A stretch of 64,000 bases of DNA from the IMG/VR virus record IMGVR_UViG_3300025098_005131; one strand, 5' to 3'. Made by a program: the position numbers and the translations under genes. This stretch comes from a virus. Lineage: Duplodnaviria > Caudoviricetes. A model generated the notes under the pieces. It had not been told where the DNA came from and did no database searches. It was given only the letters and a program-made list of their open reading frames with translations. Position 1 is the stretch's first letter. Each line of letters opens with the position of its first letter. Shown in pieces: positions 13,825-30,004 of this stretch.

Positions 13825-13863
13825 ATTGTTAGTCTCCTATTTTTAAATCTATAAAACTATATA

Positions 13864-16800
13864 TTACGGAAATTCAACACCTGAGTTAGTAATTACAAAA
13901 TCAATTGCAATAAATTCAATAGCTCTTGTAGGCACAATAACAATTTGTCCGTTAAGTCTATTATTATCTACGTCCTGTGCTGTATTGTTTGTATCGTCCA
14001 TAATAACTCTAAAGTCTTCGATACCTTGATTAATCTGAATATTTGCAAGTTGACTGCTAGCAGAAGAAATAAATCTATTTCTAGTCTTTGAGTTGTTTTG
14101 CTCAAATAGTAAACCTTGCGCAATTAACTCTATTCTTCTCTTAATCTCTAAAACAAGTCTTCTTACGTTAACTCTATCAAGTGCAGTTCTCTTTAGCTGT
14201 GTTGTCTTCTGTCCAAATATAACAAATTGTTTATTTGGGAAGTTTGCAATTGGATTAATTCTAGACTCATACAATGTATCTCTATCTTCAGCGTTAAGTC
14301 TAACTGAAATTGAAGAAATAGATTCTAATGCACCTCTTGAAAATCCTGCTGGAGCAAACCAAGGCTGCGAAATGGAATCAGTCAAAGCTAATGCACCAAG
14401 TGCAACAATCGATGAAGGCACCAACACAGATCTTCTAGAATTAACAGCAGCTTCGTCAGAGTCACCGCTATCCAAAACTTTTACGTCCGGAAAGTAAGAT
14501 GCTACATAAGATGAATCCACTTCACGAGTATCAAAATCACCAGCTGTAAGCACAACGTCAGGCTTTGAACTCTCAGTGCCTCTTGCATCAACAAAAACTC
14601 TTTTACTATCTTTGTCATACTGCTCTAAGTCCATTAAGTAAATTGCTTTACCATACTCTTCTTCAATTCTATCCTTAACGAGATCTGTTACAAATCTATC
14701 GCGAATATTTGGTATAGCCAAGACATTATGATTAACAACGAGATCATCTGTCATTATTCTGATCGCGTTTTTATAAGAAGCAATAACATTGTTTAGGTCT
14801 TCACTACCTTGCATAACAGAACCAACGTCAGCCTTTAAAGTTCCATGTATTCCACTTTCAAATCCTTCAATAGCGCCTTTACCTTTTGGTGTGGTTGAGG
14901 TATGAACTGAAGCTGCTCTGTCTGTCATAAAGTAAGAGTCTCTATCAAAGATGTTTAACCCATCAAAACCACCACCCATCGGTGCAGTAAACTTTGCCAT
15001 AACTGAATATTTGTTAAACTTTAAAGTGTCTTCTGCTAAAAGCTTTGCTAAAGAAACTCTGTCAGCTGCATCAATATCGTCATTAGTTCCACCCATTTTA
15101 ATTAAATGTGCTGAAGCGTCATAAACGTCAGAATTAGAAACTTCTGCATTTCTTACGTAAACTGCGCTTTTAAAAACATCGTTTGTTGTCCCAGTTACTC
15201 CGTTAACAGTAGCACCTTTAAGAGCAACCTTTGCCAAAGAAAACTTATTGTTATTATGACTGTCTGATAGTGAGCCAGAAGTAATCACTGTTTGATCTAC
15301 ACCAAAAAACTTTGTATAGTTTGAAAGAAGCTCGTTAAACTCTGTGCTTTTATTTGCATTATTAATGTCTAAAACGCGTGTAGACATAAGACCCCAGTGT
15401 AGAGCAAAGTTAACACTTTCAGACGGAGATGCATCACCTAAGAAAGTTTGTTCGTAAGATTGATTTGTTCTAATGTCACCGTTTGTTACTTTAAATCTAT
15501 AAGGCAGAGGAGGCAAAATAGAATCTAAAAGTTCGTTAACTTTAGCATCACCGGCGCCCGAGTCTACTGCAAAAAGACTGTAATTGGTGTCTGAGTCTTT
15601 TGCTGTCGCATTAAAGTGCAAAGCGTCAATGCCTCTAAACCCAAAAGGAAGTGTTTTTGCTGGAACTTCGCCTTGCATAATTGCATCGCTAACAACAACT
15701 CTTACTTTCTGTGAATTGTTCTTAAACGTACCTTCTCTTACAAGTCTTCTTTCGTTTTCGCTTGCAGCATCAAAGTTAAAGTATACCTTTTGATCACCAA
15801 TTACTCTGCTTATAAAGTTGCTAGAATTAGGATCTAAAGAACACTGGTTGAATGTTTCGTAAATAATAGGTGATTCATCTGTATCTTTTAAATCTCTAAC
15901 TGTAACTGTAAACGTTCCATACTCATCAGTTGGATCTGTGCTTGCTCTTAAGTTAGATATAGATATTTTATATTTGTCGTTTGCGTAAGCACCGTCGTCC
16001 AAAGAATCGAAATGAAACAAGTCATATTCACGTGAACCAAAAGGTTGCGAAATAAACATTGGTGAAGTTGCTGATTTAAATCTTGACTCAAAGTTTTCAA
16101 AAGCGCCTGCAAAGCCATCTGTTTTTTCTTGTAAAAGAGAATATGGCGAGTTTGCAGCAGGTTCTGCAACTTCTGAATCAATAGGGAAATGTGCGTAGAG
16201 AAAATGCTTTTTACTTTCTAAAGCAAAAGGATCTGTATTAAGAACCTTTGATATATACTTGTCGCTACCTGGATCTAAAGAAAAAACGTAGTCTAAACTA
16301 TCTCCCGCTTGGCCTGCATCATCTTTAAATCTAATGTAAAAAAGTTTATTTTGATTGACATGATAGCTGTTTATTTGCTCGGTAAAAGATCCGCTAGCTT
16401 CTTGCAAAGGAATGATAGAGTAGTCTTTGTGAGTAATAATCATTGCTCTAACTATATTGACAAGATTATCGTTACCATTTGGAGCATTTGGGCCACCATC
16501 ATCGTCCATATTTGTAGTAAAAGAGTCGTTATCGTTTATAGATCCTAAACCAAGCCATTCTCCAGCGCTAACCGTGTGTGTAGATGCAAGAAAATAAGAA
16601 GCACCAATTAGCCTTCCGGCTGTACCGCCACCAACAGCATCAGTTCTCGGTGTAAATTTAAATCCAGCGTTTTCTTGGCTTTTGAGTCCGCTGCCTAAAA
16701 CTCTGCAGAAAGTTAGTGCAGAGTTAGTTGTGCTATTTCTAAAATATTCTGCTGCTGCATGACCGCCGAGTCTATTTGGGTCAGGTTCACCAAAAATTCT

Positions 16801-18908: not shown

Positions 18909-20354
18909 TTATCCTATTATAATTGCTTTGCCATTAGGCACAGGTACTCGCTTTAATATATTAAGCATTGTTTCGCTCTGAGCAGCATCAGCTTCTAATA
19001 ACTTCTGGTATGTTAATTTGTCAAGCTGCTCATTTAAAGAGTCTATAAGCTTTTGCTGATCATCTCTACCTTGGCTTAGCAAATCAGAGCCATTTAACTG
19101 GACATCGCTACCAGGAATAGGCACAGAACTAAACTTTGATCTAATAAGTCCTAATGTTTCTTTGCATAGTGCAAGTGTATACTGTCTTATCCATTGTCTA
19201 GACATTTGATTAATTTTACTATAAGTAATATTTCCAAAAGGAACGTTTGACAAGTTTGAAACGCCGTCTATAGATTCGTCCCCATACGGCAGATTAGGCG
19301 AAAAAGGATCTGTAGGGAAAGAAAATTTAATGAAAAGATTCATAGGATTATCTTGTGTAGGTCGAGGATAAATTCTTAAATTTTGCCCTTGTAACTTATA
19401 TGAGTAATTACTTCTTCTAACTCTATTTGATATGTCTAATTGACCTGCTCTTAATAAATCTTCAAAAACAGGCAAAACATAAAATACAGTTTCTGGTGTA
19501 AAAGATTCAAATGCAAATTGATTATTTAAGTAGTTAATTGCTGACGTTGTATCAAAAAATCGATATGCAGCTTGAGGAGAAAAGTGAAATATCTCATTTA
19601 CTTTAATCTTTGTCATTGAAGCAGTCGGCAAAACTTTTTCTTTATAGACTGGATTAAATAAAGATTTTTGTGCTGGATCGTTATTGTACTTATCTAAGTT
19701 TAAGACAACATCGTCTGTAGGTATTTGGAGTTCTTTATAGATGTTATAATCTTGTTTGTTGTGTTGTAACTCTATAAATCCGTCCAAAGAATTGTTTACA
19801 CCACCAACAAAAGCTTCGCTAGCATAAGGTTCAGCTCTTCTTAATAAATATTCTAAAGTCTCTCTAGGAAATCTTTGCTCTTGTCCATTAGGACCTACTT
19901 TTTTATCTTCAATAGGCACTGCTGGAGGATTATTATCTTTAGCAACAATTTCACCATTGTCGTATTGACCTTCAACATTTTGTGCTAAAAACCGAGGATC
20001 GTTTACGTTTTGTATTAACAAAGGTTGCGTATTAGCATCCAATTCATCACCGTAATAATAATTTCCAAGCGCATTTTTTTTATATGTTTCAGTTGGTCCA
20101 GTCTTGAGACCAAGTATGTTAGACATATAAGATTCAGCCTGATGAGCATTTATTTTTTTTGAAAACTCAAATGTAGCCTCTTCAAAGTTTGCCCATATTT
20201 GCTTATTTGTCAACTCTACCGACATTACATCATCACCTAATCGACGTTTAACGTATAAAACAATTTTATCTGCATCTTCTTGAAAGTGGCTATCACTATC
20301 AAATGAGCCAAAAGGCGTCGGCTGATTACTTAGCATGCTTAAAAATGAAGCCAT
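18909..20354 (-). CDS. Neck / head-tail adaptor (T4 gp13-like, 481 aa)
   Basis: VKRRLGDDVMSVELT, WIRQYTLALCKETLGLIRSKFSSVPIPGSDVQLNGSDLL and C-terminal IIIG are gp13-like hallmarks. Confidence 0.82.
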   Translation of the reverse strand: MASFLSMLSNQPTPFGSFDSDSHFQEDADKIVLYVKRRLGDDVMSVELTNKQIWANFEEATFEFSKKINAHQAESYMSNILGLKTGPTETYKKNALGNYYYGDELDANTQPLLIQNVNDPRFLAQNVEGQYDNGEIVAKDNNPPAVPIEDKKVGPNGQEQRFPRETLEYLLRRAEPYASEAFVGGVNNSLDGFIELQHNKQDYNIYKELQIPTDDVVLNLDKYNNDPAQKSLFNPVYKEKVLPTASMTKIKVNEIFHFSPQAAYRFFDTTSAINYLNNQFAFESFTPETVFYVLPVFEDLLRAGQLDISNRVRRSNYSYKLQGQNLRIYPRPTQDNPMNLFIKFSFPTDPFSPNLPYGDESIDGVSNLSNVPFGNITYSKINQMSRQWIRQYTLALCKETLGLIRSKFSSVPIPGSDVQLNGSDLLSQGRDDQQKLIDSLNEQLDKLTYQKLLEADAAQSETMLNILKRVPVPNGKAIIIG

Positions 20355-20505: not shown

Positions 20506-20871
20506 TTAACATTTTTTACAAACAGAAACGTTTAAGTATGAAATTGCATATTGCAAACCATTTTCCCACGATACAGTTAATTTTGTTGCAAACCCTTGCT
20601 CGTTAGATTTAAAGCTTAAAACTCTACCTTTTAATCCATCTCTTAAATTATTTTGAACGCAATCACCAGCAGAAACTTTCAAGCTTGAAGAAGCAACGCT
20701 TTTTACAGCTGCTTTTTTAGGCGCAGGCTTAGCTTCTGCTTTTTTAGGAGCAGGCTTAGCTTCTGCTTTTTTAGGCGCAGGCTTAGCTTCTGTCTTCTTA
20801 GAAGCAGGTTTCTCATCTGGTTTTTCTAAATTAACCTTTTTATCTTCTTCTGATTTTTTAGCTCTCGACAT
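20506..20871 (-). CDS. Basic protein with histone-H1-like AKPAPKK repeats and a small C-terminal beta domain (121 aa)
   Basis: Three AKPAPKKA repeats; C-terminal LKVSAGDCV...GRVL...TVSWENG resembles an SH3/KOW-like barrel; GGAG RBS. Confidence 0.75.
   Translation of the reverse strand: MSRAKKSEEDKKVNLEKPDEKPASKKTEAKPAPKKAEAKPAPKKAEAKPAPKKAAVKSVASSSLKVSAGDCVQNNLRDGLKGRVLSFKSNEQGFATKLTVSWENGLQYAISYLNVSVCKKC
20711..20791. repeat. 27-bp tandem repeat x3 (GCTTTTTTAGGMGCAGGCTTAGCTTCT)
   Basis: Three consecutive copies with one mismatch, encoding EAKPAPKKA. Confidence 0.95.
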
Positions 20872-21856: not shown

Positions 21857-22366
21857 TTATACTACAAATATTAATCCGCCAGCTGCTTGGCTTACGCCTT
21901 GAACTGACCATTTTGAGCCTGTGTAAAATAGCTCAATAAAATCTCCTGCTTTGGCTGTGTCTGCTACAAACCGAATTTTCGAATCATCTTCTGGGTCATT
22001 GTTAACAGCTAAATTTGCTCTATCAACTGCTGCGCCTCCTTGATATAAAGTTCCAGCAAAATCGTGAGCACCATCACCTTGGATTACTTCTATTGTTTTT
22101 CCTGCTGCAACATCTATAGCAGTTATAACTCTATATTTAACACCTGTTTCAGGGGCAGCTGGTAATGTTATATCAATATCGTTATCTGCGTTATGAGTAA
22201 CAAGAAAAACTTTTCCTGAATCTTCATTTTTTAAAGTATTAGCTGCTGCTGATATTGGCACAATTTTTTTTCTAAATCCTGATAATTCACCACGCAAGTC
22301 TAGAGCAGCATCTGTCGATGACTTTTGCACTAACCCTTTTACTTGCGTATATTCTACACTTGGCAT
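21857..22366 (-). CDS. Putative virion decoration protein, paralog A (169 aa from ATG 22366)
   Basis: Strong AAAGGAGG RBS before ATG at 22366, and the paralog also starts MPSVEY. DSGKVF...ITLPA..G..Y..I...GDFIEL...W pattern is typical of small beta-sandwich virion proteins. Confidence 0.6.
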   Translation of the reverse strand: MPSVEYTQVKGLVQKSSTDAALDLRGELSGFRKKIVPISAAANTLKNEDSGKVFLVTHNADNDIDITLPAAPETGVKYRVITAIDVAAGKTIEVIQGDGAHDFAGTLYQGGAAVDRANLAVNNDPEDDSKIRFVADTAKAGDFIELFYTGSKWSVQGVSQAAGGLIFVV

Positions 22367-22450
22367 AACTTCCTCCTTTTCGGATAAACTTGTCCGCATG
22401 ATTCCGATGCACTGGCGGGGTCAGCTGTTATGTTTGCATCGGGCCTAATG
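22367..22450 (-). ncRNA. Candidate structured cis-regulatory 5' leader RNA
   Basis: GC-rich island in AT-rich DNA; 8-bp stem CCGATGCA/TGCATCGG (22435-22442 with 22404-22411); CGGA/TCCG hairpin (22381-22396) next to the RBS. Confidence 0.5.
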
Positions 22451-22461
22451 CTATATATTAC

Positions 22462-22490
22462 AAAAAAGGTGCATTTTTTACGTGCACCTT
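22462..22490 (-). terminator. Intrinsic terminator
   Basis: AAGGTGCA/TGCACCTT 8-bp stem followed by a U-tract on the minus strand, downstream of the 86-aa ORF. Confidence 0.75.
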
Positions 22491-22527: not shown

Positions 22528-22788
22528 TTACTCAGAGTCACCGGCAGGTTCTGCATCAACAACCTCGTCAGACTCAGGCATACTTACTGCTTCAGCCTCA
22601 TCGCCACTCGCATCGGCAGCTTGTGCCTCTGCTGCTTGTCTCTCTTGCTCTTCACGAGGTACTAGTCGATCAATTGCTTCTTGCAATGTTGAAGCATCTT
22701 GCAAAGAAAAGGCTCCTCGTCGTTGCGCTACTTGTACTGCCGAGAGAAGAATATTTATTGATTGAACTTGTTCTGGTGATAATTGCAT
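22528..22788 (-). CDS. Hypothetical protein (86 aa), helical N-terminal core (AVQVAQRRGAFSLQDA) and acidic tail
   Basis: ORF with AAAGGA RBS, its own promoter-like element and terminator. Confidence 0.8.
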   Translation of the reverse strand: MQLSPEQVQSINILLSAVQVAQRRGAFSLQDASTLQEAIDRLVPREEQERQAAEAQAADASGDEAEAVSMPESDEVVDAEPAGDSE

Positions 22789-23114: not shown

Positions 23115-23152
23115 TGTATTCTCCTGTTAAACTATTACTATATTATATATTA

Positions 23153-25095: not shown

Positions 25096-25250
25096 TATAT
25101 TTATCTACTTTTCCTTCTTGCTAATGAAAGTGTGAAAACCTAGCAAGTCAAACGGCATTATGACACTTCTTATACACTGACACACTTCTTCTTCGCTTTA
25201 TATATAAGACGCATCAATAGATAAATATAACGTAATACTTCTATATATTA

Positions 25251-26635: not shown

Positions 26636-29600
26636 ATGACAAAATATTCTTTAAAACAAGTTTTTTATAAAAATAGTGCTTTATTAAATGAAATGGCACT
26701 AATAACACCTAAAAACTTTTTAGAAAAAGTAATAAAACTCTGCAAAGAAAAACCTCAATTAATTGGCGATCCTACAATAAGTTCTGTAGAAGAAGCTTTC
26801 GACAAAATAGATGATAATTTATATAAAAAAAGAAAATATTTGACAGCGATGCAAACAAATGAGTTTTTATATAAATTAAAAGCTGAATATGAGTCAAAAG
26901 AGAAAGATAGACAAAAAAGTGTTGATATTAGAAAAAGTAAAGGTATTAAAGTAAACGAAAAAGACTTAACACCAATTACACTATCTGAGAAAGAAAAGGA
27001 ATATCAACTTGAACTTTACGAGGCAACTTCTGTAAAAGAGAAAAACATTGCTTTAGAAATTATAAAAATAGTACATGTAACAAAACTGCTAGAGCTTAAA
27101 GGAAAAGAAAACAAAAGCAAACTCAAAGAAGCAGAAGAAATTTTAATTAAACAGCTTAGGAAACATAAAAATTCTGACGGTGAGTTTATCGAATTTAAAA
27201 AAGTTCTTCCAATGTTTGACAGCATAATACAATATATTGAAAAATCTGTTGACGTAGATATTGATACTTGTATTAAAGCTGCTGATCTTTATATGCGTGT
27301 TTATTATGACATTGCAAGAAAAGAAGAAAAAGATGAGATCGAAAAGGGAAACTTTGACTTTAATATCATAATGAAAAGAATGACATTTGCAAAAGGCTAT
27401 AAAAAGATAGCTGCAGTTGGGAAAATGTTGTCTGAATCATTGTTAAAAGTATATGAAGACGATGATATGTTAATTGTTTATCCAACAAATTACAAAGCAT
27501 TCAAACATATGCTTGGAAGTGTATTAGGAGCGAGCGAATTAACTTGGTGCACGTATAGAAGCGAATCAACTTGGAGCAGTTATAATTCAAGTCAGTATGT
27601 AGCAGTTGCCCATTCAAAAAAAGATGGCTTTGGCGAAGACGCTTATGCAATTAGCCTTAAAGTACGAAAAGACGGAACCATTGATGTAGAAGGAACTTGC
27701 GACTTTCACAATAATCACGTTGATGACGAATTTCTGGATGAATACATAACAAATGAAATGAAAACAGAAATTTCAAATCTGCCAGAACAAGTTAGCTTGC
27801 AATCAAACATTTCTGAGATTGAAGATAATGTAATAGGACTTAGTAAACTTAACGATGTCAACGAATTAAAAAATTGTTTTTCACAATCACTCGCATTCTC
27901 AGGTGTTGAACAGACTATGGGATTATATGAGTTAATGTGCACAGAAACACAGCTCTCTAAAGAAGATGCAGCTGAAGTAATTGTTGATAGTGTAGCTTAT
28001 TATATATTTGATAATTTAGACGCTGAGACGCTGTATTTTACTGACTTTTTCCTTACTCAGGGCATGTATCCTAGAGAAGAAATTTATAATAATTTAAAAA
28101 ATAAAATACTAAATCAAAGATCTCACCCAAGATATTTTAATGCTTTTGCAGAAATTCAAAAAAAAACGACGTCTGTTTATAGTTTTAAGCAACTCAACTT
28201 TAATGAGTTTAAAAGTGCCTTAGGCATTGCATGTAATACAAACAACGCAAATAACTTAAAAAGAATAATAAAGCTAGCGCTAGATAGTGATGAGTACAGT
28301 TCATATTTAAATCCCTATAAAGTTCAAAATAAATCAGCAGGTCTTACAAAGCAAAACATAGAAATATATGACATGATAATGAAATCGCAAGGAATAAAAT
28401 CTTACATTTCAGAATTTGGAACGAATTCACTAAATAAAATTACAGGAGGTTTATCCTCTGGGAGATCGTTTAGACCTGATGTATTTATCTCACATTTAAT
28501 TTTTAGATATCCTGAGATATTTGTTAATAATCTACAAGAAAAAAGTGAAGACTCAAGTGAAGATTTAATAGTAAGTATCGATTTAAGTCTTGTGACAAGA
28601 TATATTATTAAAGATGCAAGTGCAAAGCCAAGTGAATACCTAAGCGAAGAAAGCAACGACGAAAGAAGATTTTTAAGTCTTGACAAAAATGCTTATCAAG
28701 AAATAAAAGAAAATGTATTAACAGAATACAAAACTTTTAGACTAATAAAAGACTATTTAGGAAGTAGAGATGCTTATGTGCTATACAGACTAATTGGTAG
28801 CAATATCGAAAAAGGTAATCCACTTAATGTGTCTTATAATCAAGATGAATTTGACATATTTAATGATTTAACTTCGTACAAAGACGTTTTTAAAAGTAAT
28901 GACTATTTTGCAAACTTTATAACATTCTTAAGTGCATACAAGAAAAACGCTACTGACTTAAACACAAAAACTCTAAAAAATATTGCTGATCATATTGATA
29001 GATCATATAACAATGATGAATTAGCAGACACAGCGACTTGTCAATCGTTTTTTGAAACAGTTATATTAGACAACGCAACGAGAGACTTTGACTTTGAATA
29101 TGCATATGAAATATTTAAAACTTTGCCTGATAGTTTGAGAGCGTTTATTATTACTAAAACTTTTCATAAAGCTCGTATAAGTATTCTGCGAGGCAAAAGA
29201 AATATTGATAACGTTATAAACCATATTCAAAATAAATCTAAAATATTTGTAAAGTCATCAAACTTTATTGACAATTACTATTCTTTGCATAGACTTCAAA
29301 TACCAAAATTTACGTTTTTAATATTGACATTTTTAGATTTTATACCTATGGAAAAAAGAAAAGTTTATTTTAGTCAATTTGTAGAACAATTATTTTCTAG
29401 AGACAACACCAACTATGAATCAACACATGAAAGAAGTTTAGCAACAAACGCAATTCAAAAGATTGATATGGAAATAATAGGAAGTGATGAAACAATAAAT
29501 GCCTTGAGGAAAAAAATAAATCATGTTATAAGTCATTACGGAAAAGTGGAGTTACATACACTCTTTACAAATAGTTTAATTAATATATTCACTCAGAATA

Positions 29601-30004
29601 ACAAAGCTTTTCCTAAAGATATTATGCAAAAAATCGCTACATTATCTACAGGTCAAAACTACAATTCAGCTAACGGTATAAAAAACTTCTTTAAAAACTT
29701 TATCGGTATATCTGAAGATGGTAGTAATAGTTTATACGGTAAAGAGCTCACAATTGTAAGAGAAACGCTTAAAGAATTGTTTAGAGATAGAAAATTCAAC
29801 AGTAATAGTAGTATGTTTGGCACTCGATATTCAAAAGAAATAGCTTTTGAAATTGTCCAGAAAATGGGCAAGCATGCAAGAATGCACATGGGAATGGCTT
29901 TTCCTGATGAAGCATCAAACTTAAGCGCAAATACACCAGAAGAAGAAGCAGAGTTACAAATGGACTCACTTATTAGACAATACGTCAAAATGCTGTTATC
30001 TTAA
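26636..30004 (+). CDS. Large hypothetical protein (1122 aa) with a WCT-motif (PcfJ-like) domain; possible internal virion protein
   Basis: Long ORF; KVYEDDDMLIVYP...LTWCT...SY...ISLKV...DFHNNHV segment; C-terminal LIRQYVKMLL helix. Confidence 0.75.
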   Translation: MTKYSLKQVFYKNSALLNEMALITPKNFLEKVIKLCKEKPQLIGDPTISSVEEAFDKIDDNLYKKRKYLTAMQTNEFLYKLKAEYESKEKDRQKSVDIRKSKGIKVNEKDLTPITLSEKEKEYQLELYEATSVKEKNIALEIIKIVHVTKLLELKGKENKSKLKEAEEILIKQLRKHKNSDGEFIEFKKVLPMFDSIIQYIEKSVDVDIDTCIKAADLYMRVYYDIARKEEKDEIEKGNFDFNIIMKRMTFAKGYKKIAAVGKMLSESLLKVYEDDDMLIVYPTNYKAFKHMLGSVLGASELTWCTYRSESTWSSYNSSQYVAVAHSKKDGFGEDAYAISLKVRKDGTIDVEGTCDFHNNHVDDEFLDEYITNEMKTEISNLPEQVSLQSNISEIEDNVIGLSKLNDVNELKNCFSQSLAFSGVEQTMGLYELMCTETQLSKEDAAEVIVDSVAYYIFDNLDAETLYFTDFFLTQGMYPREEIYNNLKNKILNQRSHPRYFNAFAEIQKKTTSVYSFKQLNFNEFKSALGIACNTNNANNLKRIIKLALDSDEYSSYLNPYKVQNKSAGLTKQNIEIYDMIMKSQGIKSYISEFGTNSLNKITGGLSSGRSFRPDVFISHLIFRYPEIFVNNLQEKSEDSSEDLIVSIDLSLVTRYIIKDASAKPSEYLSEESNDERRFLSLDKNAYQEIKENVLTEYKTFRLIKDYLGSRDAYVLYRLIGSNIEKGNPLNVSYNQDEFDIFNDLTSYKDVFKSNDYFANFITFLSAYKKNATDLNTKTLKNIADHIDRSYNNDELADTATCQSFFETVILDNATRDFDFEYAYEIFKTLPDSLRAFIITKTFHKARISILRGKRNIDNVINHIQNKSKIFVKSSNFIDNYYSLHRLQIPKFTFLILTFLDFIPMEKRKVYFSQFVEQLFSRDNTNYESTHERSLATNAIQKIDMEIIGSDETINALRKKINHVISHYGKVELHTLFTNSLINIFTQNNKAFPKDIMQKIATLSTGQNYNSANGIKNFFKNFIGISEDGSNSLYGKELTIVRETLKELFRDRKFNSNSSMFGTRYSKEIAFEIVQKMGKHARMHMGMAFPDEASNLSANTPEEEAELQMDSLIRQYVKMLLS

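Follow-up and report, generated by a model that had tools for sequence, protein, structure and literature searches.

The leader of the E. coli alpha operon forms a double pseudoknot which encloses the start codon and represses translation of the operon's first gene via entrapment of the 30S subunit (PMC3616713). In phage T4, the gene 32 mRNA leader carries a pseudoknot at its 5′ end (PMC10690425). HDV-like ribozymes, including minimal and theta forms, occur in phages; P4 is dispensable in the minimal forms, and the catalytic C with which J4/2 begins is essential, a C-to-U change being inactivating (PMC10879173). Described here is a 56-nt leader core from a phage genome fragment that, as judged from covariation, forms, like the alpha-operon (rpsM) leader bound by S4 (RF00140), a double pseudoknot with the start codon of the first gene inside. 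Initiation-masking mRNA leaders are already known as a type, of which the present leader is a new family with an unusual double-pseudoknot build. On balance, comparison of relatives suggests that it serves as a cis-acting translational operator for the first gene of a fibre/neck operon.

In its mode of action, the S4-controlled leader is probably the nearest match. The two differ in sequence and model, between which no match was obtained, and in helix lengths; moreover, RF00140 is an S4-bound leader in an operon for ribosomal proteins of a cell, whereas the present leader heads a phage fibre/neck operon. The T4 gene 32 pseudoknot is an autogenous translational operator, used by a phage protein on its own gene. 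It is a simple H-type nucleation site, located far upstream of an unstructured region and preceding the gene of a protein that binds single-stranded DNA, whereas the leader described here pairs the AUG itself and precedes virion fibre/neck genes. With the preQ1-II, SAM-II/SAM-V and guanidine-III riboswitches, it shares a compact pseudoknotted core of aptamer size, many invariant bases and a 3′ helix over the initiation region; it differs from them by the lack of a model match, the lack of metabolic or transport genes and the presence of two pseudoknots instead of one. More generally, a conserved structured core, invariant unpaired bases and a platform overlapping the initiation region are riboswitch traits found in the leader, but it is not tied to the genes of one metabolite and none of the matches listed for cellular genomes represents it.

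The window, i.e., the complete stretch of 64,000 nucleotides analyzed here (IMG/VR record IMGVR_UViG_3300025098_005131), is part of a large T4-like phage (terminase, portal, gp23, gp13, gp15) that is distant from all cultured phages. On the minus strand, a terminator is followed by the box TAATATATAG, a GC-rich island, AAAGGAGG and an ATG at 22366, the end of the terminator directly abutting the promoter box (22462/22460 region). Coordinates are listed in Table 1. The original prediction, derived from this sequence, had quoted a terminator (22462-22490), TAATATATAG, a stem, a loop CCGC with a downstream GCGG, AAAGGAGG and the ATG; all were found as quoted, the stem-loop of the terminator being located at 22466-22490, and the sequence of the 56-nt core agrees with that quotation. 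It had also described the island of approximately 70 nt as far more GC-rich than other intergenic DNA. This is borne out by a GC content of 0.57 for the core, compared to 0.32 for the window, by which it ranks among the upper 0.3% of the window's 56-nt segments; in the remaining intergenic DNA of the window, GC peaks range from 0.09 to 0.43, with none above 0.43.

Table 1. Positions of the leader, its flanking signals and the downstream genes in the window. Strands of the leader are given as RNA.
Feature	Positions	Strand	Remarks
Intrinsic terminator, upstream gene	22462-22490	-	Stem AAGGTGCA/TGCACCTT (22483-22490 with 22466-22473), 9-nt loop, T-run to 22462
Promoter-like box TAATATATAG	22451-22460	-	TATATA at 22452-22457, 5 nt ahead of A 22446
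Leader core	22392-22447	-	56 nt
5′ tail UAGGC, unpaired	22443-22447	-	AGGC in 74-75 of 75 members
P1, 5′ strand CCGAUGC	22436-22442	-	7 pairs, 98.3% paired, 5 changing on both sides
Internal loop J1/2	22426-22435	-	10 nt, between P1 and P3
Pseudoknot 2, 5′ strand CAUAAC	22427-22432	-	Inside J1/2; complementary to GUUAUG
P3, 5′ strand GCUG	22422-22425	-	4 pairs, 98.7% paired, 3 covarying
Loop L3 ACCCCGC	22415-22421	-	Last four bases CCGC (22415-22418) form the 5′ strand of pseudoknot 1
P3, 3′ strand CAGU	22411-22414	-	Covariation
P1, 3′ strand GCAUCGG	22404-22410	-	Covariation
Linker AAUCAU	22398-22403	-	AA.C.U invariant
Pseudoknot 1, 3′ strand GCGG, then conserved AC	22392-22397	-	GCGG at 22394-22397, AC at 22392-22393
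P4, imperfect hairpin UUUAUCC/GGAGGAA	22370-22388	-	Pairs Shine-Dalgarno GGAGG (22372-22376); found by folding of the linker
Pseudoknot 2, 3′ strand GUUAUG	22364-22369	-	Includes start codon AUG (22364-22366)
P0001, first gene of the operon	21857-22366	-	169 aa, MPSVEYTQVKGLVQ..., beta-rich fibre/spike-like virion protein
P0002, paralogue of P0001	20891-21826	-	311 aa, same N- and C-termini as P0001, no own leader
Lys/Pro/Ala-rich low-complexity protein	20506-20871	-	C-terminal SH3/Tudor/KOW-like barrel, confident model
gp13-like neck protein	18909-20354	-	gp14-like and gp15-like genes next in operon

At the observed spacing, an 8+8 stem such as CCGATGCA...TGCATCGG is expected by chance 0.04 times in the window. 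Folding of the single sequence was compared with that of shuffled sequences and gave a z-score of −1.05, which is not significant. The minimum free energy (MFE) fold of the single sequence, in which the 5′ flank pairs with coding bases, was rejected, as this pairing is not kept by relatives. The single sequence is unremarkable by this measure; proof of the fold is provided by the relatives. An in-frame ATG located upstream at 22399 is not conserved, its A being replaced by U in about half of the members. The product of the gene directly upstream of the leader (22528-22788, minus strand) has 86 aa and is highly acidic in its C-terminal tail; in relatives, a gene for a protein of 85-90 aa is present at the same place, with the same terminator at its end.

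Four pattern scans of IMG/VR, each fixing another part of the motif, yielded about 100 viral contigs. A search of 5.8 billion proteins retrieved 11 relatives of P0001 (35-96% identity), and the marine metagenome contigs encoding them carry a near-identical leader. Among GenBank phages, no DNA or protein match to the leader region or to P0001 was obtained, only distant relatives of gp13 being found, and peptide-pattern scans of IMG/VR with P0001 and P0002 were likewise without match. A covariance model (R1), from which pseudoknot 1 is absent, was built from 35 distinct cores. On the window, it detected one copy at 79.3 bits, the second-best match scoring 9.5 bits; five large viral records likewise contained a single copy each, and one of these records is complete (239.5 kb, with terminal repeats). 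The alignment (A4) comprises 81 members, 75 of them distinct. A scan of 185,579 cellular genomes gave at least 120 pattern matches; among the matches listed, all scored at most 22 bits, i.e., chance level. With family members at 43-81 bits and this background at no more than 22 bits among the matches listed, the leader is a sharp metagenome marker of its phage group. The family was seen in uncultured large marine T4-like phages, an abundant group to which it appears to be confined. Where the first proteins of two phages share 20-60% identity, their cores are 93-98% identical.

The original prediction had not recognized the element as a known riboswitch or tRNA, and the searches agree. Covariance-model searches against Rfam 15 (4227 models) gave no match to any family: none at gathering level in the window, none on the element at E up to 10 and, for eight divergent members, none with an E of up to 1. 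No tRNA or tmRNA gene was found in the window using ARAGORN. Literature searches yielded no description of this leader. A survey published in 2023 predicted 8,495 unnamed viral RNA structures from IMG/VR (PMC10690425), and it is possible that the motif is already listed in that set as an uncharacterized candidate.

Regions upstream of MPxVEY...KGLVQ homologs, in which a search for covariation had been proposed, do carry the conserved leader. In the 75 distinct members, 98.8% of the alignment cells are paired and 12 of the 15 pairs of the core change on both sides. In a shuffle control, none of 500 shuffles reached any of these measures, and sliding the 3′ partners lowered pairing to 25-44%. 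The most distant relatives (L018-L020) show compensated changes in every helix. Pair 7-44 of P1 changes from C-G to U-A in L086, L087 and one contig from an RNA run, which thereby adds a doubly compensated variant of P1. Contigs from four RNA libraries span leader and terminator; such contigs can neither show RNA ends nor prove transcription and possibly represent DNA carry-over. P3 directly adjoins P1 on the 3′ strand. The perfect 8-bp stem of the original prediction is present in the sequence, but conserved P1 consists of 7 bp only. Its eighth pair, A-U, is given up because the inner 4-bp stem claims that U, as seen from G-U/G-C/A-U/U-A covariation.

The H-type pseudoknot proposed between CCGC and GCGG was fully confirmed. 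This pseudoknot 1, formed by the loop of P3 and a GYGG located six bases past P1, has 100% of its cells paired, with two-sided changes at each of the four pairs, the variants being CCGC/GCGG, CCAC/GUGG, CUGC/GCAG, UCGC/GCGA, CUAC/GUAG, CCCA/UGGG and UCCC/GGGA. Frequent G·U pairs on the sense strand assign the structure to the RNA of that strand, pointing to a fold of RNA (or single-stranded DNA) and not to a DNA-level element. P1 plus P3, with a calculated energy of −13.0 kcal/mol, constitute the MFE fold of the core; the corresponding values of pseudoknots 1 and 2 are −5.0 and about −3.5 kcal/mol, respectively.

Approximately 11 unpaired bases of the core are invariant or nearly so, i.e., the AGGC tail, the first loop base, AA.C.U of the linker and the AC after pseudoknot 1; each of these stayed constant also in scans that left that base free. 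No pairing partner was found for the AGGC tail. Pairing of the 5′ GG with L3 positions 2-3 was rejected, as C/U/A and C/A occur there with no compensating change. A helix between the 5′ GGC and the GCC of AUGCCA was rejected as well, since it would clash with pseudoknot 2 and is missing in members having AUGGCA. The leader is unusually well defined, with five helices including two pseudoknots, approximately 11 unpaired bases that are invariant, and covariation of almost all pairs.

Pseudoknot 2 joins the internal loop to positions −5 to +4 around the AUG of the first gene. For 78 distinct leaders, the best contiguous duplex has a mean length of 6.06 bp, compared to 5.46 ± 0.06 bp with permuted partners, and none of 1000 permutations reached the observed value. 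Compensated variants occur in four registers; they comprise CAUAAC/GUUAUG, UAUAAC/GUUAUA, AUAAUC/GAUUAU, UGAUC/GAUCA, GCAUAA/UUAUGC, GCAUAAUA/UAUUAUGC and CCAUAA/UUAUGG. In the UAUAAC/GUUAUA variant the AUG is shifted by two bases, and in CCAUAA/UUAUGG the change in the loop is accompanied by one at the first base of codon 2. The start-codon pairing is limited to 3 bp in L062 and L084. That CAUAAC mimics the anticodon of initiator tRNA was rejected as the main point, as pairing is kept by variants without CAU.

In P4, 92-96% of the cells are paired, and one pair changes from C-G to A-U in eight sequences; the hairpin is missing in members with short linkers (13-17 nt). A CGGA/TCCG hairpin had been predicted to compete with pseudoknot 1 and to end just before the Shine-Dalgarno sequence, but it is not conserved. 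At this place, relatives have UCCU or UCAC, which form the arms of P4 with AGGA or GUGA of the Shine-Dalgarno sequence, respectively. Of the switch envisaged at the ribosome-binding site, pairing of that region stands, but it is brought about by pseudoknot 2 and P4, helices absent from the original prediction, and not by CGGA/TCCG. The alignments document pairing of the leader with both the Shine-Dalgarno sequence and the AUG; by this pairing, initiation would presumably be masked. The idea of a stand-alone virion-associated RNA has become unlikely, the fold being joined to the start codon and most members having no terminator in between.

Exact copies of TAATATATAG precede three minus-strand genes in the window (13857-13866, 22451-22460 and 25241-25250). 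This box is probably the late (or middle) promoter consensus of this phage. A near copy is present at 23143-23152 (minus strand), and behind the copy at 25250 there is a 155-nt leader whose GC content peaks at 0.41. In 48 distinct relatives, TATATA-N5-AGGCC or ATACTTA-N5/6 is located at a fixed distance before the conserved A of AGGC, and the arrangement of a terminator followed by a promoter is common to most relatives. As TATATA lies 5 nt before A 22446, we infer a transcription start at approximately 22444-22446, i.e., 2-4 nt before P1, from a late-type TATATA promoter of the phage. The UAGGC tail probably represents the first bases of the transcript.

The leader always heads one type of operon, consisting of one to three MP.V..T..KGLVQ paralogues, a Lys/Pro/Ala-rich protein and then gp13 and gp14. 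It precedes an MP..KGLVQ gene in 67 of 78 cases and the Lys-rich gene in nine; where the next genes were read at such Lys-rich-first loci, the MP.. paralogues come afterwards. The Lys-rich gene is third in the operon in the window and first after the leader in some relatives (e.g., L021:5014-5442). Among the proteins downstream of the leader, no gp32 or other Pfam/PHROG match was found.

The structural model of P0001 is beta-rich (pLDDT 78) and weakly resembles capsid-spike, tailspike N-terminal and gp10-like domains of phages. T4 carries wac at the position before gp13 that is occupied here by P0001. A decoration-like operon had been suggested; the leader indeed heads an operon of proteins resembling virion-surface proteins, but for P0001 the model and the position make fibre/spike-like the better fitting term. 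Across relatives, the N-terminal MP.V..T..KGLVQ arm of the MP.. family is conserved and the remainder is hypervariable. The leader guards the most variable virion genes, encoding fibre/spike-like and probably host-facing proteins. P0001 and P0002 share the first ~33 residues and a C-terminal AGDF.EL...KW.V.G, and P0002 contains a large central insertion.

Transcription from the TATATA promoter would make the fold the 5′ end of the message. P1 stacked on P3, the two pseudoknots and, often, P4 would then gather the whole initiation region into a compact nested double pseudoknot, and this folded state would hinder or trap the 30S subunit, setting or switching translation of the first gene. The 5′-terminal helix probably also guards the message against 5′-end-dependent decay. 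The low stability of pseudoknot 2, together with the invariant unpaired bases, suggests a trans-acting partner, which would decide whether pseudoknot 2 forms. Such a partner may possibly, if somewhat doubtfully, be a phage protein of the same operon that acts autogenously, by analogy with S4 and the alpha-operon leader of E. coli, the chief alternative being a small ligand. The Lys-rich protein might bind nucleic acids and represents a candidate for this role. If found, the partner would show how these phages time or dose fibre synthesis and might add a new riboswitch or ribozyme class. The size of the leader (90-nt construct) suits direct probing, crystallography and screens for ligands or proteins.

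Several points count against an operator. Strong repression seems odd for late virion genes, the start-codon pairing in L062 and L084 comprises only 3 bp and short-linker members lack P4. A rival interpretation is a constitutive 5′ element, which would protect the 5′ end from decay and simply damp translation of the first gene to match the amounts of the neck proteins made from the same message, without responding to any signal. 5′-terminal hairpins stabilize bacterial mRNAs, P1 begins 2-4 nt from the inferred 5′ end, and Shine-Dalgarno sequence and AUG are both paired. A plain hairpin would suffice for such a task, however, and the maintenance of about 11 near-invariant unpaired bases and two pseudoknots, while the proteins diverged to ~20% identity, indicates a specific partner or chemistry, making a purely constitutive element decidedly unlikely. 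A riboswitch would provide such a partner in the form of a metabolite or ion, bound in the invariant core, that stabilizes pseudoknot 2 so that translation is shut off (or turned on); fibre synthesis would then be coupled to the host cell's condition. In size and design, the leader is similar to the small pseudoknot riboswitches by which ribosome-binding sites are masked. In the leader, the invariant unpaired bases surround the pseudoknotted core, the helix across the AUG is weak and switchable, and the linker platforms vary (P4, linkers of 13-17 nt, U-runs after the core in L018 and L244). A riboswitch is nevertheless considered unlikely, given that no Rfam riboswitch matches, that the leader occurs only before phage fibre-like or Lys-rich virion genes and never before metabolic or transport genes, and that the matches listed from the 185,579 cellular genomes all score at most 22 bits, against 43-81 bits for phage members. 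Antitermination, as by the put RNA of phage HK022, would let polymerase read through terminators along the >20 kb of late genes. The position of the element at the very start of a long same-strand structural run, directly after a promoter, would suit this function, which is extremely improbable all the same: the covarying pairing with start codon and Shine-Dalgarno sequence indicates translation, a copy of the promoter box lies within the run (13857-13866) and tandem copies 540 nt apart would be redundant.

The strand order of the leader also counts against an operator, as it leaves room for catalysis. In the HDV fold, a 2-bp P1.1 is formed from the bases directly 3′ of P1, and in HDV-like ribozymes the G at +1 closes P1 at its base, beside the cleavage site, as part of a G·U pair. 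The 7-nt C-rich L3 of the leader resembles that of HDV. The succession P1, P2, P3, L3/P1.1, P3′, P1′, P1.1′, optional P4 and P2′ is exactly that of the nested double pseudoknot of HDV-like ribozymes, with which the leader further shares a P1 of 7 bp and a short P3 whose loop pairs just past P1′; as in the minimal forms (PMC10879173), P4 is dispensable, and a near-invariant C follows pseudoknot 1. A self-cleaving ribozyme of this kind would trim the 5′ end before P1, leaving a message with a 5′-OH, or process read-through transcripts, but it appears very unlikely here. J4/2 (GGAA, GAAA or AGAAA) contains no C; the sole conserved C stands before P4 and is replaced by U in L023 and by G in one L236 copy. 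The P1.1-like helix has 4 bp instead of 2 and lies past the invariant 6-nt linker that follows P1′, and G44 is paired with C7 of P1. At the base of P1, 74 of 75 members have C-G and not G·U, the 3′ strand of P2 is the start codon region, and AGGC is conserved upstream of the would-be cleavage site, which is unexpected for HDV-like ribozymes. As the features tested (C in J4/2, placement of P1.1, G·U at the P1 base, match to the HDV-type models of Rfam) are absent, membership among the HDV-like ribozymes fails. A tentative and rather improbable proposal is that the core represents a new functional RNA class on an HDV-type scaffold, either a riboswitch for an unknown signal or a ribozyme with a non-canonical site. 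By drawing the start codon into the fold, it would gate translation of hypervariable fibre/whisker genes in marine T4-like phages. A translational operator remains the preferred interpretation.

In some phages, promoter, leader and MP.. gene occur as tandem copies, ~540-740 nt apart (L209:2582-3180, L218, L251, L242:125-846 and L236:6860-7654). Each tandem paralogue has its own promoter and leader in these lineages, whereas in the window only the first of the two paralogues does. In L209, both 56-nt cores are identical and the two genes are different. Directly behind the core, GUGGACAC is followed by a run of 6-7 U in L018 (2445-2480) and L244, and the P1 3′ strand GUGUC could alternatively pair with GACAC in these two relatives, giving a weak terminator-like fold; if real, this would be a second kind of expression platform. 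Inside the minus-strand structural block of the window, a gene for an 1122-aa protein without Pfam match (26636-30004) is encoded on the plus strand, with gp23 on one side and, on the other, the small genes that lie upstream of the leader.
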